Source of the DNA: Brevinematales bacterium
GTDB lineage: Bacteria > Spirochaetota > Brevinematia > Brevinematales > GWF1-51-8
Length of the DNA: 64,000 nt
Direction of reading: 5' to 3'
NCBI GenBank assembly: GCA_013177895.1
Contig: JABLXV010000002.1
Location: 1,285 to 65,284 of the forward strand
The translations under genes were made by a program, and so were the position numbers. Position 1 is the first letter of the stretch. Every line of letters begins with the position of its first letter. The notes beneath the pieces were generated by a model that saw only the letters and a program-made list of their open reading frames with translations, was not told the origin of the DNA and did not search any database. Positions 4,424 to 52,178 of this stretch are shown here, one piece after another.

Positions 4424-4469
4424 GGGTTTGCCCGCGCGAGATTTTCACATCGCGGAAACGATAAATCTC

Positions 4470-32334: not shown

Positions 32335-33308
32335 GAGCAATAATCGCATGCGTGATTATGATAGGGGTGGCGGCTGGATGTTCCGGTAATGTCAAGCCGA
32401 TGGTCAAGACTAATGTACTGAAACGAATCACCGATAACCTCGCCATCGGGGTGGAGGAGTACGGCAAGGGCAACTATGAAAACGCACGGGGATTCCTCGA
32501 GGAAGCGCTGCAGCTCGCCTATTCGGTGGATAATATCGACGAGCAGATCAGCGCGATGGTCAATCTTGCCGAACTGCATATGGCGTTCAAGAACCTGACC
32601 GAAGCGTCGAATTACCTGTTCACCGCGGAAAACCTCTCGATCATCACGGAAAGTAAAAAATATCTCTTCCAGCTTCATATTTCCATAGGGAAATTCTGGA
32701 ACACGGTAGGACAGGTCGATAAAGCGATCGATTTCTACCAGCGCGCGCTGAACGATACGAAATCCGAGCTCCAGCAGGCGATAGTCTATAATAACCTCGG
32801 CATCATCTACCGTAAGAACGGCGATGACGAGAACGCGCTCAATACGCTCGAAATCGCGCAGAAGATCAATAAAATGTACGGTATCAGCGATAATCTCGCG
32901 GACAACTACTATAACATCGGGGAAATCTACCGCAAGCAGCAGAAATGGGACAGCGCGTTCCGGTACTACCAACTCGCGCTTGAGAACGATAAGCTGGTCG
33001 AGAACTCGGTCGGTATTATCGAAGACCTGATTAAGCTCGCGATGGTATCCTACGAGATGGACGAAACCGAGAGCACCGCTCTCTATCTCGACCGTGCGCT
33101 CAAAGTGGCACAGGGTATCAAGCACGAGAAGTACGCCGAGGCAATCGTAAAGCTGATGAAGAAGTACGCGCTGATTGAGGCGACTAAGTCGCTGATTTCC
33201 GATAAGCCCCTTGATAAGCCATTCAAGCCGGTGGATACCCAGCTTGATATTGTAACGGAAATCGACACGATTGAAAGCGAGACGAATCAGGCGGTCGGGA
33301 CAAATTAG
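32331..33308 (+). CDS. TPR-repeat lipoprotein
   Basis: MRAIIACVIMIGVAAGCSG (lipobox). Repeated TPR units (YNNLGIIYRKNGDDENAL, YYNIGEIYRKQQKWDSAF). 4-nt overlap with the mlaD-like stop. Confidence 0.7.
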   Translation: MRAIIACVIMIGVAAGCSGNVKPMVKTNVLKRITDNLAIGVEEYGKGNYENARGFLEEALQLAYSVDNIDEQISAMVNLAELHMAFKNLTEASNYLFTAENLSIITESKKYLFQLHISIGKFWNTVGQVDKAIDFYQRALNDTKSELQQAIVYNNLGIIYRKNGDDENALNTLEIAQKINKMYGISDNLADNYYNIGEIYRKQQKWDSAFRYYQLALENDKLVENSVGIIEDLIKLAMVSYEMDETESTALYLDRALKVAQGIKHEKYAEAIVKLMKKYALIEATKSLISDKPLDKPFKPVDTQLDIVTEIDTIESETNQAVGTN

Positions 33309-33382
33309 GGCGGATTTGTTCGATCAGCAACAAGAGTTAATTGCTCATGCTTCGACTGGCTCAGCATGACGAACATACCCGC

Positions 33383-33626
33383 TTTCATCACGGGCTATTT
33401 CTCAATACTTCTGCCCTCTCGACATCGGGGTTAGCCCTACGCAGTAGGCAGGGCTGCCTCTCCGCAACATTTCATCACGGGCTATCTCTCAAAACTTCTG
33501 CCCTCTCGACATCGGGGTTAGCCCTACGCTGTAGGCGGGGTTGCCTCTCCGCAACATTTCATCACGGGCTATCTCTCAAAACTTCTGCCCTCTCGACATC
33601 GGGGTTAGCCCTACGCAGTAGGCGGG
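33383..33626. repeat. 87-bp tandem repeat array (2.8 units), truncated by the transposon left end
   Basis: tttcatcacgggct begins at 33383, 33470 and 33557, a period of 87 bp. The third unit stops after 70 nt at 33626 and its sequence resumes at 52184 (gttgcc...). Confidence 0.9.
33622..33626. repeat. Target-site duplication, left copy (GCGGG)
   Basis: Identical to 52179-52183 and lies immediately outside both transposon termini. Confidence 0.85.
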
Positions 33627-33785
33627 TGACGAATCATAATAATGTTGTGCATTGACATGAATAGATATCAGTATATAAATGATATATTGTCATAGTTATA
33701 TGAAATAAAGTAGTGCATTGAGATATTTGGGGTACTAGGTTTGTTCGCTCTTTCGGAAAATCGTAATAAAAAAGTTGTGCACTGA
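33627..33785 (+). repeat. Transposon left (cargo-side) end with three dispersed TnsB-type binding repeats
   Basis: aataatgttgtgcattga (33637), aaataaagtagtgcattga (33704) and aaaaaagttgtgcactga (33768), spaced ~65 bp apart. Confidence 0.8.
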
Positions 33786-33929
33786 ATTATCTTCATCATT
33801 TCTATAAAAACGCTAATCGTATAATTGTATTCAGAATTAATCATACCGAATACCCGAAATTTTTCATTTTTCATCGACTTGTGGACAAATCTCAAAGGAG
33901 GTGTTAAAATATAGAAGTAATAAAAATGA

Positions 33930-34145
33930 TGTAATTCAGCGAGACATATTCTGCAATTCCTGCGAGGCCCTTATGTCATCAACATGGACGGGCTCCTTTT
34001 CGTCAAACAGCTTCAGTTCCGTCCGAACAATCCGATCATGATCATCAGCATCAACCCGAACTATCCTCCGATCGAGATCAAGAGCGAGGACGAAGACGGG
34101 TTCTTTATCGTTAGGCGGGTGATAGGGAAGTATAGGAGATACTGA
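33930..34145 (+). pseudogene. Remnant of an S24 (LexA/CI-like) peptidase, C-terminal fragment
   Basis: GC-richer patch that translates to ..VINMDGLLFVKQLQFRPNNPIMIISINPNYPPIEIKSEDEDGFFIVRRVIGKYRRY*. This matches the C-terminal beta-strands of S24 repressors (G..VKRL....L.S.NP.Y.P..I......I.G.V). There is no N-terminal half or start codon. Confidence 0.5.
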
Positions 34146-34167
34146 AAGTTTATGTATAGGAAAATCT

Positions 34168-34881
34168 ATGATATGTATCTTCCTTGATGAAACAAGCGAT
34201 TCAAAATATCGCGATTATTTCGGGATATCTCTTGTAATGATTAATTCATTCTTTTATCCATTTATAAAAGAGGAATTTCAAAAAATACTTTCCTCATCAG
34301 GTTGGGACTGTAGCATTGAATTCAAAGGATCATATCTTTTTTCGAGAACAAAAGGCGATCCCTCTATTGATATCGAAAAAAGAATTAGGATTTGTTCGGA
34401 TATTATTGCATTGAATATCTCAAAGAAAAATTCAAGATTCAACTGTTACTATTCTTCAAAAAGGGGTGTAACCGATCAGAAAAATGAATACTTAAAGATA
34501 GTAGCGCATCTTTTAAAAAAAGTATTACCAAAAGCGTCTTCTGCTGCGGGAAAAAATATTTTATCAGTTGTATTTGATGAAAGAAGTGATATAAAACCAA
34601 TAGATTTATATCATTCAATTATCTCAATAATTCATGAAAAAGGATACTCTCTTTTTGAAATGATGACAATGCAAAAATCAGGATTCGAGACCGTTGGGCT
34701 TCTTTATGCAGATATAATTGGATATCTTAATGCTCGCATTGAGGTTATTACAAATGATTTAGAATTATTTGAAGGCATACGAGAAGAGGATTTGGAAAAC
34801 AATGGTAAAATTCTTAAACTCCGCAGTTCTACTGATCTTATTGAACAAATTAAGAATTTGAAATGGATAAACACCAACTAA
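34168..34881 (+). CDS. DUF3800-family protein (237 aa)
   Basis: N-terminal ICIFLDETSD (family iyiDESG motif), internal VVFDERSD and C-proximal GLLYADIIGYLNAR (family lQlADl motif). AT-rich codon usage unlike the host. Confidence 0.6.
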   Translation: MICIFLDETSDSKYRDYFGISLVMINSFFYPFIKEEFQKILSSSGWDCSIEFKGSYLFSRTKGDPSIDIEKRIRICSDIIALNISKKNSRFNCYYSSKRGVTDQKNEYLKIVAHLLKKVLPKASSAAGKNILSVVFDERSDIKPIDLYHSIISIIHEKGYSLFEMMTMQKSGFETVGLLYADIIGYLNARIEVITNDLELFEGIREEDLENNGKILKLRSSTDLIEQIKNLKWINTN

Positions 34882-34903
34882 TTAGTGATGCAAGGAAAAT
34901 ACA

Positions 34904-35766
34904 GTGAAGAAAAAAATTAAAAAATATGAGTTTTCGCTTATATCTTACTTTGACGTTCTCGGATTTAAGACAATCATAGATACACATACTGCATCAGAGA
35001 TTGATGAAATTTTAGAAGGTTTTGAAAAAGTTAGCTTGGACGATTTTGAATTCTATAAGGAATTGAAAGGGAAAGGAGGTAAAGATCTTGCACAAGAATT
35101 CGGGCAGAAGTATTTGTTTTTTTCTGATACAATAATTAGACTTGTTAACATTTTATCGAATTCAAACAAGCAATATCCTATGGGATTATTTTTTTAGAAA
35201 TATTACATCTAATTCATGTTCAGGTTCAGATGTTGTATTACCATGGTATATTCTTACGAGGATCGTTGGTTTTAGGTGAAGCTTTTACCGATAGGACAAA
35301 GTTTTTTGGTCCCGGGATAGTTGAGGCATATAATAATGAGAAACTATCCCTTTATCCAAGAATAATAATTGAAGAAGATTTAATGAACATTGTATTGAAT
35401 GGATCTTCAAAAATATTCGATAATGAAAAATGTGGTATTCTTCAAAAACTTTTATTTAAACAAGGTCATGTAACAACAGAAGAACAAAAATATATAAAAG
35501 GTTTATTGATTAAAGATAAGGACGGGAGATATTTCGCTAATTATTTGTATGTTTATTTAGATGAACTTGAGCAAAGTCCTGATTATTTAGATCTTTTAAC
35601 GGTACATAAACAACTTATTGTTAAAAATCTTAAAATATTTAAAAATGAACGAGAAATACGAAAGAAGTATTTTTGGTTGAAAAGATATCATAATTCTGTA
35701 ATAAAAAGGATTCATGCAAAATACTTTCATCACTATTTAGTAAAGAAGAAAGATTATTACATCTAA
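34904..35766 (+). CDS. Nucleotidyl-cyclase-like (class III cyclase / palm-fold-like) protein, split by a -1 frameshift in a T7 tract
   Basis: ORF 34904-35197 has SYFDVLGFK and FFSDTIIRLV (two putative metal-binding Asp segments). The -1 frame, open from 35149, continues LEILHLIHVQVQMLYYHGIFLRGSLVLGEAF..FFGPGIVEAYNNEK, matching the R.G..G and G..vn.A..lE segments. The join is at ttattttttta (35186-35196). The fused product is ~287 aa. 22-nt gap after the DUF3800 gene. Confidence 0.5.
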
Positions 35767-35770
35767 CTAT

Positions 35771-35993
35771 TTGATGGTCGAGGACAGGATGGGCGTGAAA
35801 TCCACGGTTATTACCTCGCAACTCCCGGTTAAAAACTGGTTTGACGTAATCGGAGACCCTACAATCAACCGTTGCGATTTATGACAGGAGTGTCCACAAT
35901 GCTGTCAAGATCAAGCTGACAGGCGAGTCAATTCGGAAATTATTATCAAACAATTCTAACGATTCTGGAGGAAACCTACGGCCTGTTGTATAA
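35771..35993 (+). pseudogene. IS21-family IstB (AAA+ helper) C-terminal remnant
   Basis: Translates to ..VEDRMGVKSTVITSQLPVKNWFDVIGDPTI then, after a frame break, DRSVHNAVKIKLTGESIRKLL. This matches the IstB C-terminus (TSQ.PV..W...IGDPT.ADAILDRL.HNA..I.L.GES.RK). Confidence 0.65.
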
Positions 35994-36029
35994 TGTCATG
36001 GGAGTTATTTCTATTTGTTTTTGACGTAA

Positions 36030-36239
36030 ACTTTCACCCGGATTGGCCGACAGTTTTCACTGGGTTATGCAAACAGATCTTTTAAAAATAACCACCTAAG
36101 CAAAATAGCCGGGGTAAGCGGTACGTCGCTGGCAAAGATGGCAAATACTGACGCGCTTGTAAGGACTTGTACCGCGCTGGATTACACGCTTGACGATATT
36201 TCGGAAATTGTACCAAACAACGCTAAAAACAAAGATTAA
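36030..36239 (+). pseudogene. XRE/Cro-type HTH gene remnant lacking a start codon
   Basis: Frame open from 36030: ..HLSKIAGVSGTSLAKMANTDALVRTCTALDYTLDDISEIVPNNAKNKD*. This resembles small HTH regulators (..LsklaGvS..tlskl....l..l.kiC.aLdc...DI.E). There is no ATG, GTG or TTG upstream of the HTH. Confidence 0.4.
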
Positions 36240-36263
36240 CACTTCATTTTTGGGGTAAACAAA

Positions 36264-37241
36264 ATGGATTCAAACAAAGACAGTTCTAAGTACTCTGTGG
36301 TGTCATACTTCTGTGGATGCGGGGGGATGGACTTAGGTTTTCGCGGAAATTTCAAGTATCACGACGAGGAATACGGCGAGCTTCCTTTTTACATAACCGC
36401 AGCTTACGACAATAGCGCCGCTTGCGTGGAAACCTATAATCGCTATTTCGGAGCCGACCACGCTAAAAACGCTGATTTGTCTGCTAAAGAAGCAAAGGAC
36501 ATGATAGCGGCGGATTTGTTGATTGGGGGATTTCCATGTCAAGAGTTTTCCTCCTGCGGTCCCTTGGGCGGACTTGATTCAGAGCGTGGACAGCTTTACA
36601 AGTCGCTAATCAGATATATGGAAGTTCGTAAACCTAAAGTGGTCGTTGGTGAAAACGTTATAAATCTGGAGCGTATGGAAAAAGGAAAAGTCATGGAGAC
36701 CATCGTCAACGACCTCAGAGATACGGGGTACAAGGTTGAAGTATGGAGGCTGTACGCTCCCGATTATGGCATTCCCCAAAGGCGCACCAGGCTGTTTTTT
36801 ATTTGTGTGCGAAACGATATAAAAGGGTTCCCATCCAAGCCGGAGGCGAACTTCATTCACGCCCATCGTAGCATAGAGTGGGCTATTGGCGATTTGATGA
36901 ATGTGACAGACGATAGCGTCCCCAACCAAAGCCAGTATTTTGGGGCTTCCCGCGCCAAGAAAGGCAACGGGCAGGGTGACGAGAATAACCACAAGGACAA
37001 GCCGGCATATACAATCAGGGCAAACCCAAAGTCGAGAGTCCAGTTCCACTACGCGCTCGACCGACGCCTGACGGTCAGGGAATGCGCGAGGATCCAGACT
37101 TTCCCGGACAATTTCGTTTTTACCCACGCAGCCACGTCGAGTATATCGCAGATTGGCAACGCCGTACCACCGGTTCTAGCATACCGAGTGGCGTCTTGCA
37201 TAGCGGATTATTTGAATTCAATGAAAGATAAAGAGGTGTGA
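36264..37241 (+). CDS. dcm: DNA (cytosine-5)-methyltransferase
   Basis: Motif I YFCGCGGMDLGF, IV GGFPCQEFS, VI VVGENV, VIII QRRTRLFF, IX RLTVRECARIQTFPDNFVF and X GNAVPPVLA. Confidence 0.92.
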   Translation: MDSNKDSSKYSVVSYFCGCGGMDLGFRGNFKYHDEEYGELPFYITAAYDNSAACVETYNRYFGADHAKNADLSAKEAKDMIAADLLIGGFPCQEFSSCGPLGGLDSERGQLYKSLIRYMEVRKPKVVVGENVINLERMEKGKVMETIVNDLRDTGYKVEVWRLYAPDYGIPQRRTRLFFICVRNDIKGFPSKPEANFIHAHRSIEWAIGDLMNVTDDSVPNQSQYFGASRAKKGNGQGDENNHKDKPAYTIRANPKSRVQFHYALDRRLTVRECARIQTFPDNFVFTHAATSSISQIGNAVPPVLAYRVASCIADYLNSMKDKEV

Positions 37242-37245
37242 GAAA

Positions 37246-39612
37246 ATGGATACAACTATCACTTCTGTTGATATTACCCCGAAGCCTCGAATCCTACGGA
37301 CATTGGGTGATATCCCGTTCCAACCCTGGCAATGCCTCGCGGAGTTGATTGACAACTCAATAGATGCCTTTCTCGCGGTCGAGGCGGACGCCGAGGAAGG
37401 GAAAGAACAGAAAATATTGGTCAACTGGTCAAACGACTCAGTCGGTACTCCCGACCGCACGATTGAGGTGTCCGACAACGCGAATGGAATGAGTTTAGAG
37501 CAATTGCAAAACGCTGTAACCGCTGGATACAGCGGTAACGACCCCATAAACAACTTAGGGCTTTTCGGAATGGGCTTTAATATAGCGACCGCCCGCCTTG
37601 GGGAGGTTACGACGGTTCGCTCCACACGCGCGGGTGATAAGGAATGGATCGAGCTTACAATTGATTTTGCCGAGCTTATAAGGGCGAAGCGTTTCCTCGC
37701 ACCTGTGAAAACTCTCCCCAAGGAAAATCCTGCTGAGTCTGGTTCAAAAATCATCATCTCGCGATTAAAAACCGGAATCGCCGACACTATGAACCAGAAA
37801 GAGGCGGATATCAGGAAGCAGTTAGAATCTATATACACCCCTCTTCTGACCACAAAGGATATTGTCCTTTTGGTTAAAGGGAGGCAGTTATCACCACGCA
37901 ACCACTGCGTTTGGTCGGACGCCAGATATGTGGTACACAGGCAAACGAATGTACCCGCCAGAATCCCGATTGATCGGGAACTCGGACACCCTTTGTTCGA
38001 CACCGAGCGAAACCGTTACCTTACAGACGATGAGGCAGAACCGTATTACGCCGCTCAGTCGAGAGGCGAGGCGCTACCCGAAAACATCGTGGAACGAAGC
38101 AAACGCCTTACTGGGTGGCTTGGTATCCAACGATATGCCGATCCGAATGATTATGGCATTGATTTTATACGTAATGGCCGCAAAATCCTAATATCGGATA
38201 AAACCCTCTTCTATTATGAAAGCCCAATCACCGGTCAAAAGGACATTCAGTATCCACTTGATCTTGGTACTACCATCGGCGGCCGAATCGTCGGCGAACT
38301 GCACGTGGATTATCTCCTGCCGACATATCAAAAAAACGACTTCGACAGAAACGATGCATCGTGGTATCAGACAGTTGAGGCAATTTGCGGTGTCGGCCCA
38401 TTTCGAGCGCAGGCGCGAAAAGCGTTAGGCTTACCAGAAGCCCCCACTTCTCCGCTGGGCATTCTGGCAACTGCTTATACACGAACCGATCCCGGAACCA
38501 GGTGTCTATTTGCACCCAATGAGATCGCCAAACAATTTGCCGCACAGTTTAGAAGTGGCAAGCGCGAGTATATCGACGACGGCCTGTGGTGGAAAGCTGC
38601 CCAGGAAGAGGATCAGAAGAGAAACACAGGCGGATCGAGGTCTACTACCGCTGTCAACCAAGGGGAGGTACCTTCCGACGACCCCGGAGAATATCTCGGA
38701 CAAAGCGCTAGTACACCGCTTCCCGGGGGTGTGGCAGTAGTGCCTCCTCCTACGGCCCCAACCATAACGCCGTCAGATGTAGTGACATCCACGCTAGATG
38801 AATTGATTCTCCTCTCAAATCAGGTGGTTCAACTCTCAGGCAAATATAATTTCGGCGTATCCCCGCTAAACGTCCGTGCCTATGAGCTTAAAGAGGGGAC
38901 TATCCTTGAGAGAGGCGAGCGGAAGCCTTGTTTCTTCCACTCAGATGGACCCGATTGCAGTTTCGTGTATGACCCCTTACACCCTCTGTTAGCGCAGTAT
39001 CCGATTACGTCCAAAGAACTGTTGCTCCAATATCTCGCCGAAAAGCTTAAAGTGCGAGATCGTAAAACTGATTTGGTGGAGGTGTTCTCCACCCTTGTTC
39101 AGAACACCATGCCTGAGGCGAAAATTGATCGTCAGTCTTTACAGGACAGGGCGACAAAAGCGTTTGCCCTCCTACGGGAAAAGATGGTTGAAGCCCTCCG
39201 TCCTTGCGCCGTGGACGTACTTAGGTGTATACATGAGTCCACAGGCGACGTGGAAGACACGGTAAACAGGATGCTGTCCAATCCCACTCTGATTAGGAGC
39301 TTGCAGGGTTGTGAGGAGGCGGGGTACGAGGCGATAGAGTATGTGCCCGAGAAGACTTTACTGCGACTGGTAGACAGATTCCCAGAGCTTGTTTTCGACG
39401 GTAAAGTGGTGACCGCGCCATACACAAGTATCAGCCTTTCAGACGAGAAAGCAACTGAGCGCAGCCGCAACGAGTCTAAGGAACGGGTTATTTCCTTCCT
39501 TAAAGACACACTTAGAGTTATGACAAACACAAGTTTCGGGCAAAATGACCTAAAAAATGAGTTGTCCCGTGCCTCGCTGAGTATAGATTTTTTATTAGGG
39601 GAGTTGGTGTGA
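37246..39612 (+). CDS. GHKL-superfamily (MORC/MutL-like, HATPase_c_3-type) ATPase, 788 aa
   Basis: Bergerat-fold boxes: CLAELIDNSIDAF (N-box), VSDNANGMS (G1) and NLGLFGMGFNIATARLG (G2). Starts 4 nt after the dcm stop. Confidence 0.8.
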   Translation: MDTTITSVDITPKPRILRTLGDIPFQPWQCLAELIDNSIDAFLAVEADAEEGKEQKILVNWSNDSVGTPDRTIEVSDNANGMSLEQLQNAVTAGYSGNDPINNLGLFGMGFNIATARLGEVTTVRSTRAGDKEWIELTIDFAELIRAKRFLAPVKTLPKENPAESGSKIIISRLKTGIADTMNQKEADIRKQLESIYTPLLTTKDIVLLVKGRQLSPRNHCVWSDARYVVHRQTNVPARIPIDRELGHPLFDTERNRYLTDDEAEPYYAAQSRGEALPENIVERSKRLTGWLGIQRYADPNDYGIDFIRNGRKILISDKTLFYYESPITGQKDIQYPLDLGTTIGGRIVGELHVDYLLPTYQKNDFDRNDASWYQTVEAICGVGPFRAQARKALGLPEAPTSPLGILATAYTRTDPGTRCLFAPNEIAKQFAAQFRSGKREYIDDGLWWKAAQEEDQKRNTGGSRSTTAVNQGEVPSDDPGEYLGQSASTPLPGGVAVVPPPTAPTITPSDVVTSTLDELILLSNQVVQLSGKYNFGVSPLNVRAYELKEGTILERGERKPCFFHSDGPDCSFVYDPLHPLLAQYPITSKELLLQYLAEKLKVRDRKTDLVEVFSTLVQNTMPEAKIDRQSLQDRATKAFALLREKMVEALRPCAVDVLRCIHESTGDVEDTVNRMLSNPTLIRSLQGCEEAGYEAIEYVPEKTLLRLVDRFPELVFDGKVVTAPYTSISLSDEKATERSRNESKERVISFLKDTLRVMTNTSFGQNDLKNELSRASLSIDFLLGELV

Positions 39613-41270
39613 TGACTTTTTATACGCACGACATTTCCCAGGGGAACAACTGGAAGGGTCTTGTGCGTGCCGTGGCGAGGGTGATGTCACATATAGGGTG
39701 GAAGGACACCGCCGTGATTGATGGCTCCGGCGATATGGGTGCGGACGTTCTGGCGACACAAGCTGATGGTGATAGAATACGTTCTTGGGTCGTTCAGTCC
39801 AAAGCCGTGTCCGGCGACCGCTACATAGGGCCGAACGCAATGCAGGAGGCGATAAACGCCCTGTCATTTTACGGTACAGAAATAGCTGCCGTAGCCACAA
39901 ACGGTGAGTTTACGCAGACCGCCAAGACAAGGCAGAAGCAACTTGAGGCAAACGGATATACACTAAAGCTTTGGAACGGGGCTTTCATAAAAAAGCTCAT
40001 CGAACAGATGCCCGCGGATAGTGTGGCTCTTCGGGAGCTTCGTCCGTATCAGGAAAGCATTATCAAGAAAGTCGTAGAGGTATATGACTCAGGCGGTAAA
40101 AAGGCTTTTTACATTGTCGCCACTGGTCTTGGAAAGACGGTGATCGCTGCCACCATTACGCGGCAATTATGGGAACGCGGATGTCGAAGGATTCTCGTCC
40201 TCTGCCACCAGACCGATTTGGCACAGCAGCTTGAGCAAGGCTTTTGGTCGCAGCTTACAAAGGAAGTCCCCACATCAGTCTTCTTCGACGGTATACCGCC
40301 AAAGGATACAGAGGGCGTGTCATTCGGCCTATATCAAAGCCTGTACGGTTATCTACCTGGTATTGAGGAAGACCGATTTGATGTCGTTATCGTCGACGAG
40401 GCGCATCACGCCTTGGCATATGGATTCAGGGCTTGCCTTGAGCATTTGAGGCCAAGGTTTTTAATTGGGATGACCGCCACCCCATGGCGAGGCGACGGGC
40501 AGAACCTAAACACCGTATTTGGGGAACCGCTAGCGAAAGTTTCTCTCGTGGACGGCATGGCGATGGGTTTTCTGTCTAAGGTGGATTACCGTATCCTCTG
40601 CGACAACGTTGACTGGGACGGTATGCAATCCATCAGCAAGAAGAAACTTTCCATCAAGGATTTGAACAAACGCCTATTCTTACCTCAACGCGACGAGGCG
40701 GTTATCACGGAAATACAAAATGTTGTAAAGACTGTTCCAAACCCGAGAATCGCCATATTTTCACCGTCAATTGAGCACAGCAACCGTTTCGCGGCTATGC
40801 TCTCCGCCGCAGGGATACCAACCGCCTCACTATCCACCTCGGACAAGGCGGAGCGCCGAAAGCGGCTATTAAGCTTCTCCGCCGGGAACTACAGCACGGT
40901 AACTGCGGTGGACGTAATGAACGAGGGAATTGATATCCCCGATGTTAACATCCTTGTGTTCCTGCGAGCCACGCACTCCAGGCGCATTTTCGTACAACAG
41001 CTTGGGCGCGGACTCCGACTCGCGGATGGCAAAGATAAAGTCATCGTTTTGGACTTTGTATCCGACATTCGGCGGATGGCCGAGATGGTCGAGATGAATA
41101 ATGAGGGCAAAGCCAAAGGTCGTGAAAAGGAAGTGCTGTTTTTGAAACAAGGTTTTGTTTCCTTCTCCGACGCGAAGGTGGAGCGTTTTGTAAATGTTTG
41201 GATTGAGGACGTGGCTGACCTCAGCGGTTCTGACGACGAGGTCAAGCTGACGTTTCCGGAGGGGTTCTAA
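39612..41270 (+). CDS. Mrr-like restriction endonuclease domain fused to an SF2 (DEAH) helicase
   Basis: N-terminus GSGDMGADVLAT...WVVQSKAV...AAVATNGEFT (Mrr_cat PD-(D/E)xK pattern). Helicase motifs ATGLGKT (I), VIVDEAHH (II), MTATPWR (III) and QQLGRGLR (VI). The ATG overlaps the upstream TGA (TGATG). Confidence 0.85.
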   Translation: MTFYTHDISQGNNWKGLVRAVARVMSHIGWKDTAVIDGSGDMGADVLATQADGDRIRSWVVQSKAVSGDRYIGPNAMQEAINALSFYGTEIAAVATNGEFTQTAKTRQKQLEANGYTLKLWNGAFIKKLIEQMPADSVALRELRPYQESIIKKVVEVYDSGGKKAFYIVATGLGKTVIAATITRQLWERGCRRILVLCHQTDLAQQLEQGFWSQLTKEVPTSVFFDGIPPKDTEGVSFGLYQSLYGYLPGIEEDRFDVVIVDEAHHALAYGFRACLEHLRPRFLIGMTATPWRGDGQNLNTVFGEPLAKVSLVDGMAMGFLSKVDYRILCDNVDWDGMQSISKKKLSIKDLNKRLFLPQRDEAVITEIQNVVKTVPNPRIAIFSPSIEHSNRFAAMLSAAGIPTASLSTSDKAERRKRLLSFSAGNYSTVTAVDVMNEGIDIPDVNILVFLRATHSRRIFVQQLGRGLRLADGKDKVIVLDFVSDIRRMAEMVEMNNEGKAKGREKEVLFLKQGFVSFSDAKVERFVNVWIEDVADLSGSDDEVKLTFPEGF

Positions 41271-41840
41271 ATGGCTAATTCTTTACCAAAGGATGTCGCG
41301 GCACAAGTGAAGAAGGCTGTTTTCAAGAAAGCCGACGAGTATTGTTATGCCAAGCGTGGGCGTGTGGAAAACGGCCGCTTTATAGATGAGTTGATGGACG
41401 ACCCGGAAATCGGCGGTGTCATCAAGGAGTATCGTAAAGCTGGCAGAGTCAGAACTTACATTAAGGATGGGGTACTAAACACCTACACCAAGCAAATGAC
41501 AAGGCTTATTCTACGCGCCGCCAACCCGATACAGATTATCTGCCGTACCTACAACGAAGAACAAGTGTTTGTTCTTTCACGAGATGATATTGTTGTATGC
41601 CTTTCGTCAAATGAGCGTATCTACGTTATTGGCAGAGGTACGGTGCTAAAATGGGAAACCGCGCTTAGGAAAGCACTTGAGTACATCGCTCGCACACCGG
41701 GAGTACGAACGGACGGCCGCTACCCCGCCATCTGCCTGCAACTTGCGGTTATAAACGATGATATTACAGAGGGCGATAAAAGACAAATCACAAACGCGCT
41801 CGCAGCCGTGGGTGTGAAAGTTTTTTTCTGTTCGGCTTAA
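41271..41840 (+). CDS. Hypothetical protein (189 aa), fourth gene of the operon
   Basis: The ATG immediately follows the helicase TAA. No motif recognised. Confidence 0.6.
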   Translation: MANSLPKDVAAQVKKAVFKKADEYCYAKRGRVENGRFIDELMDDPEIGGVIKEYRKAGRVRTYIKDGVLNTYTKQMTRLILRAANPIQIICRTYNEEQVFVLSRDDIVVCLSSNERIYVIGRGTVLKWETALRKALEYIARTPGVRTDGRYPAICLQLAVINDDITEGDKRQITNALAAVGVKVFFCSA

Positions 41841-41858
41841 CTTTTAGGGGATGAATCT

Positions 41859-42290
41859 GTGGTGAGGACACCTGAAGTTACACATAAAATCATGTCGGCG
41901 ATCAAGCAGAAGAACACAAAACCTGAAATACTCCTGCGAAAGGCGCTATGGCGCAAAGGGCTTCGTTATCGTGTTAACGTCACAAAACTACCCGGTAGAC
42001 CAGACGTAGTCTTCACGAAAGCCAGAATCACTGTATTCTGTGACGGTGATTTTTGGCATGGACACAACTGGGCTATTCGAGGCATTCCCTCCCTTGAGGA
42101 TGAGCTTGCGGGTTACTCCGAGTTTTGGAGGAATAAAATTCTCGGCAACATCAAGCGAGACAAGGAAACCACGGAAAAACTCATACGGGATGGCTGGCTC
42201 GTGCTGAGATTTTGGGAAAGCGATATCATCGCTGACGCCGATAAATGTGCCGATTCAGTGGTGGAAAAGTGGCGTGAGCGGCGCAACTGA
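41859..42290 (+). CDS. vsr: Very-short-patch repair endonuclease
   Basis: IMSAIKQKNTKPEILLRKALWRKGLRYR, GRPDVVF and FCDGDFWHGH are Vsr hallmark blocks. GTG start. Confidence 0.9.
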   Translation: MVRTPEVTHKIMSAIKQKNTKPEILLRKALWRKGLRYRVNVTKLPGRPDVVFTKARITVFCDGDFWHGHNWAIRGIPSLEDELAGYSEFWRNKILGNIKRDKETTEKLIRDGWLVLRFWESDIIADADKCADSVVEKWRERRN

Positions 42291-42450
42291 AAGGTAGAAT
42301 TTAGTCTATTGAGTTATTAGAACCGAAACACAAGGACGCTATTATTGACGCTTTCGAAAAAGCTAAGCGACATCTGCCCATTCTTTCAAGTGCATTTTTC
42401 TCCATTAACCTGCCAGTATTTTACTATGATATCTGACATCCATACTATTC

Positions 42451-42732
42451 TTAAAGCCTTCTACCTAGCGGACCAGGCCCCGGCAGTTTACCTGTAGCGA
42501 TACCATCATCCTCTACTAATCTTATAGTATCAGCCTTAAAAAAATCTTGTTTTATTTCTTTACCTTCAAACCATTTACAAAAACAATCTCCTTCCTTCAT
42601 ACCTCTCATTTTAGCCTGATTTCCAATTGCAATGCTAGCGGGATTATTATCCGAAGCCCCAATTACCATTTCAACTGTCATTTTAGGCCCACCACTATTC
42701 AACTGAACTACATCACCCACTTTGAAACTCAT
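42451..42732 (-). CDS. DUF2158 (YodC-like) small protein
   Basis: MSFKVGDVVQLNSGGPKMTV...CKWF matches the conserved DUF2158 N-terminus. Confidence 0.65.
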   Translation of the reverse strand: MSFKVGDVVQLNSGGPKMTVEMVIGASDNNPASIAIGNQAKMRGMKEGDCFCKWFEGKEIKQDFFKADTIRLVEDDGIATGKLPGPGPLGRRL

Positions 42733-42761
42733 AATATCCTCCTATAAAACAGCATTCGTAT

Positions 42762-43187
42762 TTACTCGATTACATGTTCCATTAATGCAATCAAACCATC
42801 ATCACTTGAAACATCTATTTGCATTTCAAGGTATCGATTCTTTGGAATTGTAAACTTTGGAAATTGTCTTAGAATTGCATCTGCAACTTTGTTATTAATT
42901 TTAATCCCATGACTCCCATCGTGAGGTGTTCCATCCAAATTCATGGAAAAAATTAAATTATTTCCATCATAAGTATGAAGGTGATATTGTCCCTTTGAAG
43001 TATGAGGAGGGTGTTTTATTACTGAATAGCTTCCTCCAAGCGGAATTCCTGGATGTTTAGCTTCCATCAAAGATCGTAATTCTTTTGGGAATGAGATACT
43101 AATATTAAAACCACCAATCTTCATTTCAATAATTTCCAAATCTTCATGTCCATAAAACCTTGTTTCTTTATAATAGTATTTAATCAT
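42762..43187 (-). CDS. Hypothetical protein (141 aa), His-rich core
   Basis: HPPHTSKGQYHLHTYDGNN..DGTPHDGSHGIKINNKVADAILRQ. No confident family. There is only a weak resemblance to HicA-type KGSH...H..k.i....IL.Q. 30-nt gap to the DUF2158 gene. Confidence 0.5.
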   Translation of the reverse strand: MIKYYYKETRFYGHEDLEIIEMKIGGFNISISFPKELRSLMEAKHPGIPLGGSYSVIKHPPHTSKGQYHLHTYDGNNLIFSMNLDGTPHDGSHGIKINNKVADAILRQFPKFTIPKNRYLEMQIDVSSDDGLIALMEHVIE

Positions 43188-43286
43188 GCAATATAACTCC
43201 TTTTTTTATATACCTAAATATAAAAAAAAGTTTATCACTCTAAGAACCGCTTCCCGCTTCTAAGGTATATTAAAACAGAAAATCTT

Positions 43287-43982
43287 TTAAAAATCATCCC
43301 AATATACCTCACAAGCCAAGTAGTCTCTAATAATCATTCTAACTCTTAATCCGTTATTACAACTGAACAAGTAACTATAATTCCCGGACTGAACGTTTAT
43401 CCATGAATAATTCAAATTATTAGCCGCCCATCTAAACAAAGACCTGCTTCCCACTTCCGGTAATAAACTTTGAAATGAAAAACTATCCGGTTGTTCGAAC
43501 TCTTTCAATGCTTCTTCCGACATCTCGATAATCGGTATCATTAATACCCGAGTCGGATCGGTTAAAGGACACTCGCTATTCTCATGCATTATATGGCCTT
43601 TCGCCAATTTAATAATAATATTTTTAAATCTTTCTATTTCTATTGAAAAATATGTATCGCTACCTTTCTTAATTATTTGTTCATCAATTCTCTTTCTTAA
43701 TAATGGGGTTTCCGATAGAATGCGCTTTACTTTATCTCTTTTAAGTATATTTGGATCTGTGGTTCCTGCAAGAGCGCATTCAATCACACAAGCCATATAT
43801 GCTTCATCATCTGAAAATCCCTCATTACATCGTTTACAAGCGGGAACGACCGGTAAATTTTCGGGATATGGTTCGTCCAGAAAAACCCGTGGGGGAACGT
43901 GTTCGCGCGTATCGGCGGCATCCCCACAATAAACGCAAAAGTATTTTAATCTCCCGTTGGATTGAGGTACTATCTGTTCCAT
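43287..43982 (-). CDS. HNH endonuclease-domain protein with an uncharacterised C-terminal domain
   Basis: CVYCGDAADTREHVPPRVF....VVPACKRCNEGFS (HNH_5-like C..C...EH..P...C..CN). ATG 43982 has AAGGA upstream. The track starts at TTG 43997. Confidence 0.75.
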   Translation of the reverse strand: MEQIVPQSNGRLKYFCVYCGDAADTREHVPPRVFLDEPYPENLPVVPACKRCNEGFSDDEAYMACVIECALAGTTDPNILKRDKVKRILSETPLLRKRIDEQIIKKGSDTYFSIEIERFKNIIIKLAKGHIMHENSECPLTDPTRVLMIPIIEMSEEALKEFEQPDSFSFQSLLPEVGSRSLFRWAANNLNYSWINVQSGNYSYLFSCNNGLRVRMIIRDYLACEVYWDDF

Positions 43983-44285
43983 AGAATTATCCTTCAATTC
44001 ATTTTAACTTCATGCAAACCGACAACCGAAAAAGATGTAACAATACTATTATAGAGACGTCTCGAAAAAAGCAACTTTACACCGAAGATGTTGAAAAAAT
44101 CGTTCCAGAAAGTGTGAGATTCGCTTTTTTCGTCTTTCCATTAGCGTGAAAAAACGATAGCTTTTTTATTTCGTTCTTGGATATTAGTAAAACAACTCTA
44201 ATGTATAGAATTAAATTATTCGTATATTTTATCATAAAGTATATTTTAACAATTTTACAAAGAAAGTCAATAATATTCATTATAG

Positions 44286-45893
44286 TTAATAAATTAGCTT
44301 CTTTATTAGCCTCTCCGCCCACGCCTCGACGGTTTGTCCGGTAACATGCCGAAGCAACAGGTATTCGAACTCGCGGTTTTGTCTCAATCGGTAGATGTTC
44401 CAATGAAACGAGTTCTTTACGACTATCGATAAATGCTTATCTACGCTCTCATACCGGTCTGCATAACCCCATGAAGGTATCACAATCAAAGTCGATGACG
44501 AAGAGTATTCGAGGCGATTGAACTCGAAAATGAAACGTGAACCGATGCTTCCGCTGGAGATATGGACTATAGCGCACACTCTATCCCGTTCGATTATACT
44601 TGATGTTTCGCAATTCCTGAATGTGACTTGAACATTCCAATCCCAATTCTTATCCTGAAGAATATCTAATGCTTTCTTGAAATCGGAAAAACCTTCGGGA
44701 AAAGTAGCGGTATCGATCAATGGTACAAACTCTGCCGAGCGTATAGATCCACCCGGGAAACGGGTGCGTGTAGAGACTGTGTCGTCATTCCGGTTTGTTT
44801 TTTCTGACGGTTGTCGGAAGTTATCTCCGGTGTCGCAGGATTCCCCTTTATGACGGATTTGAGTTTTACTTCGAACTTTGACAACTTTCGGTTTATTAAC
44901 AAAACGAAATAGTGTATTGGGATTTGATATTCTTCTAGGTTCGGCTCCTTTATCGGCGGCTTTGACCGTTTCATCCAGGACAAATGCAGGAATATCGCCA
45001 GTGTCTTCGGTTTCGCCCCTAGGAGTTACAGGCTTTCTATCGGTTTCCACACTAATGAATTTGGGCGAATGGCAGACGATTCGAGAGTATGGTGCTATTA
45101 TCCCCCTTCGTTCAAGGATTTCCAGAACAAGGATGCGGTTGTAGAGTTTCAACCCTCTGCATCTCCAATGTTCTCGCGTCGATAAAGGGGGATACGCTTC
45201 GAGCGGGATACCTTCTTTGAATCCGCGTTCAAATTGTCCGGGAAAGTCGATCATAGCCCGATCAAACATTCGAAGGTAAACCGAATCCCATTCGGTAGAG
45301 GCTTTTTTATCGAAGTTTAGCCATACGAAATACGAGATGATGTCCTCTTTCAGCAGGGCTTCCGGATATTCACCGGTTAATTCTATTTCGATACCGAAAT
45401 CGTGTTCGATGTACGATCCGAGCAGATTATCCATACCCCGTGGTTCGAATAGACGGTTCAATAAAGCAGAATACGGTGCTATAATCGATCTGAGAATCTC
45501 AGTGCACGGGAGGTAAATGATCGTACCGGAGATCATAAACCTGCACAGGAGTTGGTACCCATACCTGATTGTCTCCCAAAACGGGTACAACGGGCGCGGA
45601 ATGTCGAAGCCCTTGCACAAAGAAAAACGGGTGGATGGAGAAATCTGGATGGAATACTCTCTTCCGGTCGCGTCCTCGTTCCGGATGGTACCGTTAACAT
45701 ATTTCCTGCCGGGTATCAATGAGGGCAAAGTTCCCCAAGGAAATACTTCTTCCTTGTAACTCCCATTCGGGCGTCGAAATATCGCCGGGATCATCCATTG
45801 CCCCGGGGATTCTTTGTACGGAGCACCCAGCCAATACAGTTCGACGTTTTCGTTTTCGGAAAATCTCCACGGGCGAAGCGTAAGTTCAGTCAT
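44286..45893 (-). CDS. Uncharacterised 535-aa protein in the TnsE position of the tns operon
   Basis: Starts 5 nt after the tniQ stop and is co-oriented with it. Its size is close to Tn7 TnsE (538 aa). No motif recognised by eye. Confidence 0.6.
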   Translation of the reverse strand: MTELTLRPWRFSENENVELYWLGAPYKESPGQWMIPAIFRRPNGSYKEEVFPWGTLPSLIPGRKYVNGTIRNEDATGREYSIQISPSTRFSLCKGFDIPRPLYPFWETIRYGYQLLCRFMISGTIIYLPCTEILRSIIAPYSALLNRLFEPRGMDNLLGSYIEHDFGIEIELTGEYPEALLKEDIISYFVWLNFDKKASTEWDSVYLRMFDRAMIDFPGQFERGFKEGIPLEAYPPLSTREHWRCRGLKLYNRILVLEILERRGIIAPYSRIVCHSPKFISVETDRKPVTPRGETEDTGDIPAFVLDETVKAADKGAEPRRISNPNTLFRFVNKPKVVKVRSKTQIRHKGESCDTGDNFRQPSEKTNRNDDTVSTRTRFPGGSIRSAEFVPLIDTATFPEGFSDFKKALDILQDKNWDWNVQVTFRNCETSSIIERDRVCAIVHISSGSIGSRFIFEFNRLEYSSSSTLIVIPSWGYADRYESVDKHLSIVVKNSFHWNIYRLRQNREFEYLLLRHVTGQTVEAWAERLIKKLIY

Positions 45894-45898
45894 ATATC

Positions 45899-47473
45899 CT
45901 ACCCGGCTTTTATTTTTCGATCATTTATATATCGATTTGTTTCTTTACGGATAGCGTTTTTCACTTTTAACGCATACGATTGTGTTAATCCCGCAAGCCG
46001 CTCGATTCTCCACCGGTCGATGGGTTTGCCTTGACGTACCAATTCACGTGAGCTCCATTCTACTCGCCTTACTTGGAAATCCTCAACGCTTTCCGAAACT
46101 CCTTTCAAATACCCGACCGATATCGGGAGCTTGTCGGGATGTTTTTCCAGACATGTAAGCCAACCGATTCTCTTCCCGACGGAAGTGAGGGAAATCCTGA
46201 TAGGTTTTCCCCCTTTTCCGCGCATTTCCTTGACGACGGCCTTTACCTTTTCTAAAATAATTCTATCTCTTTTCTTCCAATCGACAGTCCCGGAAAAGTT
46301 ATGGGTGGAATATCTCGGCGAATTCGTCTTCAGCCATGCATAATCGTAACGGAAAAGTTTCGTATGCAAGGGGAAGTCGAATTTCTTTAATTGTGTTCTC
46401 GACATCCCCGGATGTGTCTCGATGAGATTTCGCCATTCGCTCCTGCAACGTTCGATATCGACCGTATCGGGTTTTTCCCAAGATCGGCGGCTTTTTACGA
46501 ATAACTTCTCAGGGGGCATTCGTTTCGCATCGTCAATGAAGTTGGCAGGGATTCCACAAAAAAACCGCATCAACAATAGATGCCTGAGAGGGTGTAGCGT
46601 TTTCGTTAGATTCTTAATGATGTACATCGGCCACAGATAAGCCTCGTCGCAAAGATAATTCGATTGAAGTTTTTCAAGCGTTTCCGATCCGTAGAAATCA
46701 TGCAACTCCCGGATAAATTCACCCCAACGGTGTCCGTCGATATTGACCGGCGAGAATTTAATCTTTAGAAAACGACGGTAGGTTTTCTTCAAGCCCCCAT
46801 CAGCATAGGAAATCTCCCGAACTTTTTCGTAATTATCGTACAACCATTCGATATCGTCGGCGACTTCGCACAGTTTGTCCGTAACTCCGTCGATTTTCGG
46901 CGGAACGCGATTCGGCGAGATCGGGCAGGTATCGGCGTCTGCCGCAATGAAATCCTGTTTGTGCATTTCGTGAATTTCAATCGGGCTTTCTTCCAGAAAG
47001 ACTTTATGCCTACTGCACACGAGCACACCTGGTGTGTTGTGGAGCCGGTGCCAATAGAATTCGCCGTATCGTTCGAAGTCATCCCGGCAGCATTCCGGGC
47101 AATATTTTAGCATCGGAAAGACATGAATCGTACTTGCTGTAATGCCCAATTTGATGTGGATATTTCCACCGAAAGGTTTTCTCATAGTTTTGTAGGCGTC
47201 TCTCGCTTCGTTTTGGGGCAAAAAGGCCGTGTAGTATGGGTAAAGGGTATGATCGCGGATTATGTCTCTAACGGATAAAGAAACAAACGATGGTAATACG
47301 CTCGCGAGCGCGTCTATATGGCAAGGCATGTCGAAAACTGAGGAAAAAGTCTTTTTCCCGAGAAGCTCCTTCATCGTAGCACTAAAACTCGTGTTCCCGC
47401 TCCTCACATGGTATCTTGAAAGAACACCGTACAACAGCTCGTCTGGATAAGGAAGAGGAAAGAACACTGGCAT
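45899..47473 (-). CDS. tniQ: TniQ/TnsD-family target-selection protein
   Basis: N-terminus MPVFFPLPYPDELLYGVLSRYHVRSGNTS (TniQ signature). CPECC zinc-finger motif. 524 aa, so a long TnsD-like form. Confidence 0.85.
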   Translation of the reverse strand: MPVFFPLPYPDELLYGVLSRYHVRSGNTSFSATMKELLGKKTFSSVFDMPCHIDALASVLPSFVSLSVRDIIRDHTLYPYYTAFLPQNEARDAYKTMRKPFGGNIHIKLGITASTIHVFPMLKYCPECCRDDFERYGEFYWHRLHNTPGVLVCSRHKVFLEESPIEIHEMHKQDFIAADADTCPISPNRVPPKIDGVTDKLCEVADDIEWLYDNYEKVREISYADGGLKKTYRRFLKIKFSPVNIDGHRWGEFIRELHDFYGSETLEKLQSNYLCDEAYLWPMYIIKNLTKTLHPLRHLLLMRFFCGIPANFIDDAKRMPPEKLFVKSRRSWEKPDTVDIERCRSEWRNLIETHPGMSRTQLKKFDFPLHTKLFRYDYAWLKTNSPRYSTHNFSGTVDWKKRDRIILEKVKAVVKEMRGKGGKPIRISLTSVGKRIGWLTCLEKHPDKLPISVGYLKGVSESVEDFQVRRVEWSSRELVRQGKPIDRWRIERLAGLTQSYALKVKNAIRKETNRYINDRKIKAG

Positions 47474-47476
47474 AAT

Positions 47477-52018: not shown

Positions 52019-52110
52019 TTCCTAAACCTTCCTTTTTTTGTTAAAGAAAGATCACATGTTGGGCAAACCGTTAAAAAAGAACCGTCAATACCAATATCGG
52101 AATATATTTT

Positions 52111-52178
52111 CAGGGCATAACATTTTTATTCAGGGCACAACTTTTTTATCTAGGGCACAACTTTTTTATGATTCCACA
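52111..52178 (-). repeat. Transposon right (tnsA-proximal) end with three contiguous TnsB-type binding repeats
   Basis: Plus strand: cagggcataacattttt (52111), cagggcacaactttttt (52132), tagggcacaactttttt (52151), then atgattccaca ending at 52178. Confidence 0.85.

Follow-up and report, generated by a model that had tools for sequence, protein, structure and literature searches.

A candidate MORC-associated restriction-modification operon carried by a Tn7-like transposon in a Brevinematales bacterium

The closest described relatives of the operon reported here were predicted in silico by Iyer, Abhiman and Aravind in 2008 as restriction-modification (RM) operons that combine a MORC ATPase, a Rad25-like helicase/nuclease, a Dcm methyltransferase and Vsr (PMC2292703). 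In that paper's account of its type 1 operons, the MORC consists of GHKL and S5 domains, the Rad25/XPB-like helicase carries an N-terminal restriction-fold (Mrr) nuclease, and the operons are sporadically distributed and laterally mobile; an additional uncharacterised restriction-fold protein is described only for a third operon type, which uses a different helicase (PMC2292703). The same authors proposed that MORC ATPases descend from bacterial restriction systems, and they drew an analogy to MutH-MutL-UvrD in general terms (PMC2292703). The present analysis concerns a five-gene operon at positions 36264-42290 of a 64,000-nucleotide stretch of a Brevinematales bacterium genome (GenBank assembly GCA_013177895.1, contig JABLXV010000002.1, positions 1,285 to 65,284 of the forward strand), which is referred to below as the window. 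Judged by its sequence, the locus agrees with the 2008 type 1 operon in every feature open to testing in the published description, and the connection to that prediction drawn in a preliminary description of the window holds for all components and for their linkage (PMC2292703). The locus is a new member of this computationally predicted class. On balance, we favour the interpretation that it is a mobile, methylation-based system for self/non-self restriction of the MORC-associated class, carried as cargo of a Tn7-like element and operating by the mechanism proposed below. What is new in this analysis is the definition of a four-gene core, a proposed role for the protein encoded in the fourth slot and the evidence from relatives that this slot can be occupied by different proteins.

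The operon consists of five co-oriented, tightly coupled genes, all on the + strand. The first is dcm (36264-37241), which encodes a C5-cytosine DNA methyltransferase of 325 amino acids (aa) assigned by PF00145 and TIGR00675, and it is followed by the gene for a 788-aa MORC-type GHKL+S5 ATPase (37246-39612), identified by matches to HATPase_c_3, MORC3 and MORC4. The third gene (39612-41270) encodes a fusion of an Mrr nuclease with an XPB-like superfamily 2 (SF2) helicase that is 552 aa long, or 553 aa if translated from a GTG at 39609, with Mrr_cat, ResIII and Helicase_C domains. The fourth (41271-41840) encodes the slot-4 protein, a 189-aa member of an unannotated family characterised here by an AlphaFold2 model, Foldseek and synteny, and the last is vsr (41859-42290), whose 143-aa product is a very-short-patch T:G mismatch endonuclease assigned by TIGR00632 and PF03852. 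In gene order, 4 nt separate the first two genes, the second and third share a TGATG stop/start overlap, the third and fourth abut (0 nt), and 18 nt lie between the last two. At the overlap, the TGA stop codon of the GHKL gene occupies 39610-39612 and the helicase ATG begins at 39612, with the alternative GTG start at 39609. A GGAG/GGGG-type ribosome-binding site precedes each of the five starts. The ORF (open reading frame) coordinates and junction sequences bear out the gene order and spacing given in the preliminary description, profile searches confirm all of its domain assignments (Dcm, GHKL ATPase, Mrr/SF2 fusion and Vsr), and its estimate of about 50% G+C, distinct from both neighbouring modules, agrees with the values of 0.50 for the operon, 0.33 for 34000-36200 and 0.40 for 42300-45900. 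On comparative evidence the five genes are real and not chance ORFs, because full-length homologues with 44-87% identity occur in the same order in about 30 independent loci. Consensus scans for promoters and terminators returned sites no more numerous than in shuffled sequence, and Rfam gave no match within 33000-44400.

The methyltransferase is a full-length match to PF00145 (4.7e-61, profile positions 2-321 of 324) and scores 194 bits against TIGR00675 (6e-57; cut-off 100.65). Its motifs FCGCGG, GFPCQ, ENV, QRRTR, RECARIQTFPD and GNAVPP are legible and conserved among homologues, and its closest solved relatives are M.HaeIII (1e-33) and M.HhaI. The target-recognition region (aa 201-280) is the best-conserved segment of the enzyme, with 0.78-0.92 column identity across 31 homologues, and for this reason the Dcm proteins of the window's subfamily probably share one target motif. 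That motif could not be inferred from the PDB relatives, whose alignments cover mainly the catalytic core.

The 788-aa protein, which is identical to HPY53_00785 (annotated as a hypothetical protein), matches HATPase_c_3 at 5.8e-11, and GHKL motifs I-IV are present as the N-box AELIDNSIDA, the G1 box DNANGM, the G2 box GLFGMGFN and motif IV TARLGEVTT. The N, G1 and G2 boxes reported earlier are thereby all accounted for. Residues N37, D40, D77, G81, G105, G108, G110 and T122 are invariant in 15 MORC homologues. PDB sequence matches are to MORC3 and MORC4 with no others, and a Foldseek search with the MORC model returns SMCHD1 and, at E values of about 1e-9 to 1e-7, MORC2/3/4, Hsp90/TRAP1, TopoVI-B and MutL. 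In the S5 domain, the motif GGRIVGELHVDYLLPTYQKNDFD aligns to MORC3, the lysine motif LLPTYQKNDFD aligns with its MORC3 counterpart, and the segment G304-IDFIRNGRKI fits the MORC signature GhXhhpXXRhl at 10 of 11 positions (K where 'h' is expected), with nine of the 11 columns invariant in the family. By its motifs the ATPase is a true MORC, since both the GHKL motifs and the MORC-specific motif of the S5 domain are present. The C-terminal half (aa ~470-788) is composed of a low-complexity linker, a small beta unit and a confidently modelled helical domain; it is family-specific and carries no annotation. Clustering at 50% gives a MORC family of 248 clusters at E<=1e-30 and 1084 clusters at E<=1e-3, and many of these clusters share just the N-terminal ~460 residues with the window's MORC. 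Neither PADLOC-DB 2.0.0, even at E<=10, nor NCBIfam contains a model that matches the protein.

The third protein combines Mrr_cat (2.2e-13), ResIII (1.2e-28) and Helicase_C (5.8e-13) domains, and its helicase is XPB/Rad25-like by sequence comparison. Its closest solved relatives are the 953-aa 'putative helicase' 7clg (1e-30), which we take to be the modification-dependent enzyme SauUSI, followed by RadD, the type I R subunit 3h1t and XPB. Among 35 homologues drawn from the window's subfamily and from the sister subfamily described below, conservation of the motifs GDxGxD...QxK, ATGLGKT, DEAHH, TATPWR and QQLGRGLR is 95% or more. The best PADLOC model is mREase_IV (2e-41), in a match that covers the helicase core alone (profile positions 236-598 of 945).

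To examine the conservation of the operon, loci were sampled by a scan of one genome per species, which yielded 31 loci, by a scan of viral contigs, which yielded three more, and by a look-up in Akkermansia, which yielded a further set. The order dcm-MORC-Mrr-helicase-slot 4 is identical, with equally tight spacing, in all complete loci of the window's subfamily. Compared with the window's proteins, the homologues are about 61-82% identical in Dcm, 46-88% in MORC, 54-87% in the helicase and 34-72% in the 189-aa protein. The hosts include Bacillota, Bacteroidales, Verrucomicrobiota (Akkermansia muciniphila), Victivallales, Betaproteobacteria, Actinomycetota and sphingomonads, and their spread over so many phyla is a signature of horizontal transfer. 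The cassette is common in A. muciniphila and other gut bacteria, and the Akkermansia homologue is present in 985 blocks of the assembly collection. The related cassettes have defence and mobile-element genes as neighbours, among them AbiEii, BrxR, GmrSD_N, KAP NTPase, HipA, integrases and insertion sequence (IS) elements. As far as gene order and alignments can tell, the Dcm, MORC, Mrr-helicase and 189-aa genes are tightly coupled and are inherited as one unit in different phyla. The alignments also show conserved catalytic motifs in each of four parts: the Dcm, the GHKL ATPase, the SF2 motor and the Mrr nuclease.

The slot-4 protein has no Pfam or NCBIfam match. Its family comprises at least 448 homologues, all of about 189-193 aa, all without Pfam annotation and all named 'hypothetical protein', and a Pfam scan of 31 members at E<=10 returned nothing consistent. 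In the complete loci of the window's subfamily its gene always lies directly after the helicase gene, and by this conservation the slot-4 protein is a fourth core component. An AlphaFold2 model built on 31 homologues has a predicted local distance difference test (pLDDT) score of 91 and comprises two domains, a helical one at the N-terminus (aa 1-94) and one with beta-beta-beta-alpha-beta-alpha-beta order at the C-terminus. A Foldseek search of the PDB with this model places EndoMS/NucS on top (probabilities 0.96 and 0.91, E about 0.02-0.03), and later matches are Can2/Card1, MUS81-EME1, FANCM-FAAP24 and Zip2-Spo16; the matches, though weak, agree in pointing to proteins with the restriction-endonuclease fold. 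The protein is predicted to join an N-terminal helical domain to a C-terminal domain with a restriction-endonuclease-like fold. Its invariant motifs are RTYIKDGxLNxYTK, on a long helix, and GTxLKWETALRKALE; strands 2 and 3 contain no conserved D...(D/E)xK. The earlier designation of this protein as an unknown stands in so far as it remains unannotated, but it need not be left unexplained, since it is a conserved core component with a predicted fold. Membership in the MvaI/BcnI family (PF15515) was considered and ruled out, as there is no PF15515 match and nothing consistent was found in the 31 relatives.

A sister subfamily of at least 1940 proteins was reached through the 31%-identity MORC of an Anaerolineaceae genome. 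In all nine sampled sister loci, the MORC and Mrr-helicase genes are adjacent and coupled to a larger Dcm of 440-552 aa. In six of the nine, the gene after the helicase encodes an MvaI/BcnI-family protein (PF15515, 1.2e-49). Five of these proteins were aligned (L031:10948-11724, L038:9993-10748, L039:9999-10748, L041:9993-10748 and L042:9994-10743), and one lies outside this alignment (L045:10017-10754). A profile of the five matches solved MvaI at E 2.6e-9 and BcnI at E 7.7e-6. The catalytic Asp, Glu and Lys of MvaI and BcnI are replaced in the five by N/Q/T, V/L/I and N/T/K, respectively, and the upstream Glu of MvaI is replaced by L. Since all D/E/K positions are replaced, these proteins are apparent pseudo-nucleases, which seem to have kept the sequence-reading scaffold of a monomeric, sequence-specific enzyme and to have lost canonical catalysis. 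An hhalign comparison showed no relationship between the 189-aa family and the Anaerolineaceae MvaI/BcnI-like protein that occupies the same slot (probability 0.2%), and PF15515 proteins fill this slot in the sister subfamily only.

Two plasmid-borne variants extend the comparison. On a Rhodococcus plasmid, genes for MORC, Mrr-helicase and a 202-aa protein are found with vsr and the gene for a different Dcm, 391 aa long. The match of the 202-aa protein to the slot-4 family is confined to the N-terminal 70 residues (hhalign 81%, E 1.2e-5), a region that includes the R-x-(Y/W)-(I/L)-K-D motif, and its C-terminal part differs. On a Pseudosulfitobacter plasmid (NZ_CP085160.1, L046, 5986-12827), MORC and helicase genes are accompanied by a gene for a 175-aa protein, which hhalign identifies as distantly homologous to the 189-aa family over its full length (97%, E 5.6e-11). 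In very few cases so far, then, the N-terminal domain of the slot-4 family appears constant and the C-terminal part appears to change where the methyltransferase changes. The Pseudosulfitobacter locus also has an IS3 element between its MORC and helicase genes, a PIN-like-domain gene after the slot-4 homologue and an Eco29kI-family endonuclease gene upstream, with no Dcm annotated nearby. The 2008 description of MORC operons, in the text available for comparison, makes no mention of the 189-aa family, of degenerate MvaI/BcnI-like proteins or of the HhH-GPD substitution described next (PMC2292703).

Vsr scores 122 bits against TIGR00632 (cut-off 97.85) and matches PF03852 at 6.6e-27, so that both proteins of the Dcm-Vsr pair exceed their curated cut-offs (TIGR00675 and TIGR00632). 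The vsr gene follows slot 4 in about 20 of the ~28 informative loci of the window's subfamily and is absent from eight, in which nothing conserved takes its place. Because of these eight loci, the core of the operon is, on comparative grounds, four genes, and Vsr is an optional accessory. In four of the nine sampled sister loci, an HhH-GPD glycosylase gene stands beside the Dcm gene and there is no Vsr. Glycosylase genes next to a Dcm gene, with no Vsr detected, lie at L031:6256-6975, L039:5258-5962, L040:~3823-4452, L043:3646-4359 and L044:3551-4246. A further one, next to Dcm and on the opposite strand, lies at L025:~2823-3467 on a contig that ends within the MORC gene, so that Vsr could not be scored. 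From its position, HhH-GPD looks like a non-homologous replacement of the T:G repair function. That two unrelated enzyme families fill this position is the best available support for a role of Vsr in offsetting 5-methylcytosine (5mC) deamination, and the proposal to this effect in the preliminary description fits both the optional nature of Vsr and the presence of the unrelated glycosylase beside Dcm.

Several other known systems resemble the locus in part. The preliminary description pointed to the PADLOC Hma class, and this lead was not upheld. The likeness is limited to the abstract description of 'helicase, methylase, ATPase', and the protein families are unrelated: HmaA is a Snf2/DUF3883 protein with a C-terminal nuclease, whereas the window's helicase is XPB/ResIII-like with an N-terminal Mrr domain; HmaB is a DUF1156 methyltransferase, whereas the window's Dcm belongs to PF00145; and HmaC is a DUF499, AAA+-like ATPase, whereas the window's is GHKL. 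The GHKL protein has no PADLOC match, as stated above, and no Hma model is found among the best 25 PADLOC-DB 2.0.0 matches of the helicase (27 in total) or of Dcm (61 in total). DISARM class 2 was likewise rejected, as just the generic Dcm matches DrmMII and none of DrmA, DrmB or DrmC is among the PADLOC matches listed.

Type I HsdR and type III Res enzymes share with the locus a PD-(D/E)xK nuclease fused to an SF2 motor acting on double-stranded DNA (dsDNA) and a separate methyltransferase, and the window's helicase partially matches the profiles of HsdR and type III Res, as well as the type I R subunit 3h1t. The EcoAI HsdR model, however, scores 132 bits, far below its cut-off of 550, and the window's operon has no HsdM, HsdS, Mod or N6A methylase. 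Its methyltransferase is instead a small, type II-like 5mC enzyme, and it adds a GHKL ATPase and a small reader-like protein. Sub-cut-off or partial scores and the subunits missing from the operon rule out type I and type III. An experimentally validated GHKL-nuclease defence protein is VcSduA of Vibrio cholerae, a paraMORC3/Shedu type I-D protein (PMC12137116). It belongs to the same MORC/paraMORC radiation, described in 2008, and its phage defence, too, involves a PD-(D/E)xK nuclease under the control of a GHKL ATPase. It differs in being a single polypeptide with a DUF4263 nuclease and without methyltransferase, helicase or Vsr, and in being a paraMORC3, not a MORC proper. In both sequence and fold, the N-terminal ~460 aa of the window's MORC match eukaryotic MORC2, MORC3 and MORC4 best, and the GHKL motifs and the S5 'PTxxKxDFD' lysine motif are shared with these proteins. 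The window's protein lacks their CW zinc finger and their coiled-coil and chromatin modules, and it has its own C-terminal half (aa ~470-788) and a nuclease-helicase operon.

In functional terms, a close parallel is offered by methyl-directed mismatch repair (MutH-MutL-UvrD) and Vsr-MutL very-short-patch repair in Escherichia coli, where a helicase is linked to a methylation-sensitive, site-specific restriction-fold protein through a GHKL+S5 ATPase and Vsr works in the same functional circle. The structure paper on MvaI relates the MvaI/BcnI family to MutH, and the MvaI/BcnI family membership of the sister slot-4 proteins sharpens this analogy. The differences are that the window's operon has no MutS, that its helicase is an SF2 XPB-like protein with its own nuclease, not SF1 UvrD, that the mark is 5mC and not the m6A of Dam, that the reader of the window's class is apparently catalytically dead and that the expected outcome is the destruction of unmethylated DNA.

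These comparisons make it likely that the locus is a methylation-based restriction system; the following assignment of individual steps to a reader, a clamp and a motor is more tentative, and we regard its details as somewhat more apt to be revised than kept. Dcm would methylate one fixed short motif on host DNA, and the slot-4 protein, which probably holds the key to target recognition and is proposed here as a site reader or adaptor, would bind unmethylated copies of that motif. The conserved helical domain at its N-terminus would attach it to the machine, and DNA would be read by its C-terminal domain, which is restriction-endonuclease-like but has no canonical active site. Eukaryotic MORCs and MutL close on DNA upon ATP binding, and the MORC dimer would do so here, coupling the reader to the helicase. 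The XPB-like motor would then translocate on dsDNA in the manner of type I HsdR, and the Mrr domain, the only clearly intact nuclease, would cut. Vsr would nick T:G mismatches that arise by 5mC deamination at the methylated motif and would in this way limit the C-to-T mutational cost. The logic would parallel that of MutH-MutL-UvrD, turned against unmethylated DNA. The broad division of labour, with Dcm marking self and the ATPase, helicase and nuclease restricting, had been put forward in the preliminary description and is supported indirectly by the inseparability of Dcm, MORC and Mrr-helicase across phyla. A wider generalisation, doubtful though conceivable, is that the two subfamilies represent an uncharacterised ATP-dependent restriction class with swappable parts, in which a dead restriction-fold reader and a MORC clamp license an HsdR-like Mrr-XPB motor nuclease. 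It is similarly speculative that the reader in such a class would be the 189-aa family in the window's subfamily and a degenerate MvaI/BcnI homologue in the sister subfamily.

A number of observations weigh against this interpretation. Full-text literature searches found no experimental study of the MORC RM operon class, and the methylated motif was not recoverable from the methylome literature on Akkermansia and the microbiome, which offered nothing usable. The structural model of the MORC is mediocre to poor (pLDDT 63), and the fold assignment of the 189-aa protein rests on a weak match (best E 0.02 and a template modelling (TM) score of about 0.3, from Foldseek against the PDB only). Either the 189-aa protein or the MvaI/BcnI-like proteins may have a non-canonical active site. 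In three sister loci (L040, L043 and L044), Dcm, MORC and Mrr-helicase occur with no conserved slot-4 gene, which rules out a universal slot-4 reader and indicates that a separate reader is not universally required. Finally, Mrr-family domains and the best PADLOC match of the helicase, mREase_IV, are typical of modification-dependent enzymes.

The last point raises the question of whether MORC and the Mrr-helicase are a type IV-like nuclease directed against foreign modified DNA, with Dcm and Vsr as a separate orphan module or as protection from a competing restriction system. Mrr_cat is the catalytic domain of the type IV enzyme Mrr, and both the mREase_IV match (2e-41) and the best solved relative, 7clg, point in the same direction. 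The mREase_IV match is limited to the helicase core, however, and Dcm is strictly co-inherited in every complete locus of both subfamilies and translationally coupled in the window, so that an obligatory co-encoded Dcm argues against the modification-dependent class. A nuclease that cuts 5mC-containing DNA beside a 5mC methyltransferase would also be self-toxic unless the two specificities differ, and we consider this explanation very improbable. A less remote but still improbable explanation is that the operon serves methylation and repair, not defence, with Dcm as the methylating enzyme and the other products as a dedicated excision-repair pathway for 5mC deamination damage, in which MORC would stand in for MutL and act with Vsr, the helicase-nuclease and a site reader of MutH-like or restriction fold. 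The linkage of Vsr or HhH-GPD in most loci fits such a module, as does the membership of the sister slot-4 protein in a family related to MutH. E. coli MutL interacts functionally with Vsr and loads UvrD, and the 2008 paper allowed for the recruitment of some MORC operons to repair (PMC2292703). Against a repair module, Vsr is missing from about a quarter of loci and nothing conserved replaces it there, whereas the other four genes never separate. The union of Mrr with an XPB-like dsDNA translocase is the architecture of a restriction enzyme, as the profile matches to HsdR, type III Res and mREase_IV indicate, and the cassette moves horizontally on transposons and plasmids and in defence islands. 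A repair function would moreover offer no reason for carrying a methyltransferase.

The slot-4 protein could, instead of reading sites, be a transcriptional controller, comparable to the C proteins that time restriction, or a structural subunit, in which case recognition would fall to Dcm itself, as in type III Mod, or to the MORC C-terminal half (aa 470-788), which is family-specific and unexplained. The all-helical N-terminal half could be helix-turn-helix (HTH)-like, the protein has no canonical nuclease motif and the three sister loci named above do without any slot-4 gene. On the other hand, the helicase and slot-4 genes abut in the window (0 nt) and lie just a few nt apart in most close relatives, an arrangement that suggests stoichiometric co-production of the two proteins, and regulator genes more often lie upstream, whereas this gene follows the helicase. 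The C-terminal domain is predicted to be restriction-endonuclease-like, the C-terminal part differs where Dcm differs, and the same slot in the sister subfamily is filled by a degenerate sequence-specific restriction enzyme. A role other than site reading is unlikely when these points are taken together, and a reader or adaptor remains the preferred assignment for the slot-4 protein.

The cassette is surrounded by a Tn7-like transposon of about 18.5 kb. On the - strand at 44286-52018 lie tnsA, tnsB, tnsC, tnsD/tniQ (with TnsD and TniQ domains) and a 535-aa gene without Pfam match, which stands where tnsE would be. Three TnsB-site-like direct repeats (AATGTTGTGCATTGA) mark the left end (33641-33785, + strand) and two inverted copies mark the right end (52110-52144, - strand), and the position of the operon between these repeats and beside the tns genes identifies the cassette as transposon cargo. 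The right end abuts the 3' end of a purU-like gene with ACT and Formyl_trans_N domains (52204-53067, - strand), which suggests a purU attachment site. A megablast search of the operon against E. coli genomes and plasmids and a tblastn search of the MORC protein against phages found no match, so that the cassette is neither an enterobacterial nor a known-phage element.

Other features of the element and its surroundings are recorded here for completeness. Immediately outside the left-end repeats are three tandem 87-nt units (33383-33643) with no Rfam match, whose copies are 94% and 78% identical to the first, and a 104-aa ORF (33341-33655) that overlaps them is probably spurious. AT-rich cargo (G+C 0.33) at 34168-35766 contains three co-oriented ORFs of 237, 97 and 178 aa with no meaningful Pfam match, the last two of which may be parts of a single gene interrupted by a frameshift or stop. 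Just upstream of dcm, at ~36030-36239, is the C-terminal part of an XRE-type HTH domain, ending in LSKIAGVSGTSLAKMANTDALVRTCTALDYTLDDISEIVPNNAKNKD and a stop codon. This fragment, or the 33-aa ORF in the same region, was considered as a controller and rejected, as there is no start for a full domain and it is not conserved upstream of related dcm genes; it is probably an unrelated remnant. Between vsr and the transposition genes, three small genes on the - strand (42451-43997) encode a 93-aa DUF2158 protein, a 141-aa protein without match and a 236-aa protein that matches HNH_5 weakly and is Cys-rich at its N-terminus. An 18-nt sequence (GACTTTCCCGGACAATTT) at 37097-37114, in the motif IX region of dcm, recurs as a perfect inverted match at 45231-45248, in the 535-aa gene next to tnsD. 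It is read in different frames in the two genes, and a rough estimate puts the number of such matches arising by chance in 13 kb at about 0.001.

MORC ATPases silence transposons and viruses in animals and plants, and a bacterial relative within an operon of this kind offers a way to approach their function. If the proposed coupling of a reader, a MORC clamp and a motor nuclease is correct, the known ATP-dependent restriction architectures would extend beyond types I-IV, the contribution of a GHKL clamp to the licensing of a nuclease would be explained and there would be a biochemical handle on MORC function. If the class with swappable parts is also real, it would amount to MutH-MutL-UvrD recast for restriction and would provide an extant model of what eukaryotic MORC ATPases did ancestrally. 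The compact four-gene core, which apparently addresses one DNA motif and is common in A. muciniphila and other gut bacteria, can be cloned and tested. The cassette adds a further case of defence cargo on a Tn7-like element, and it bears on the genetic tractability and phage susceptibility of gut commensals.

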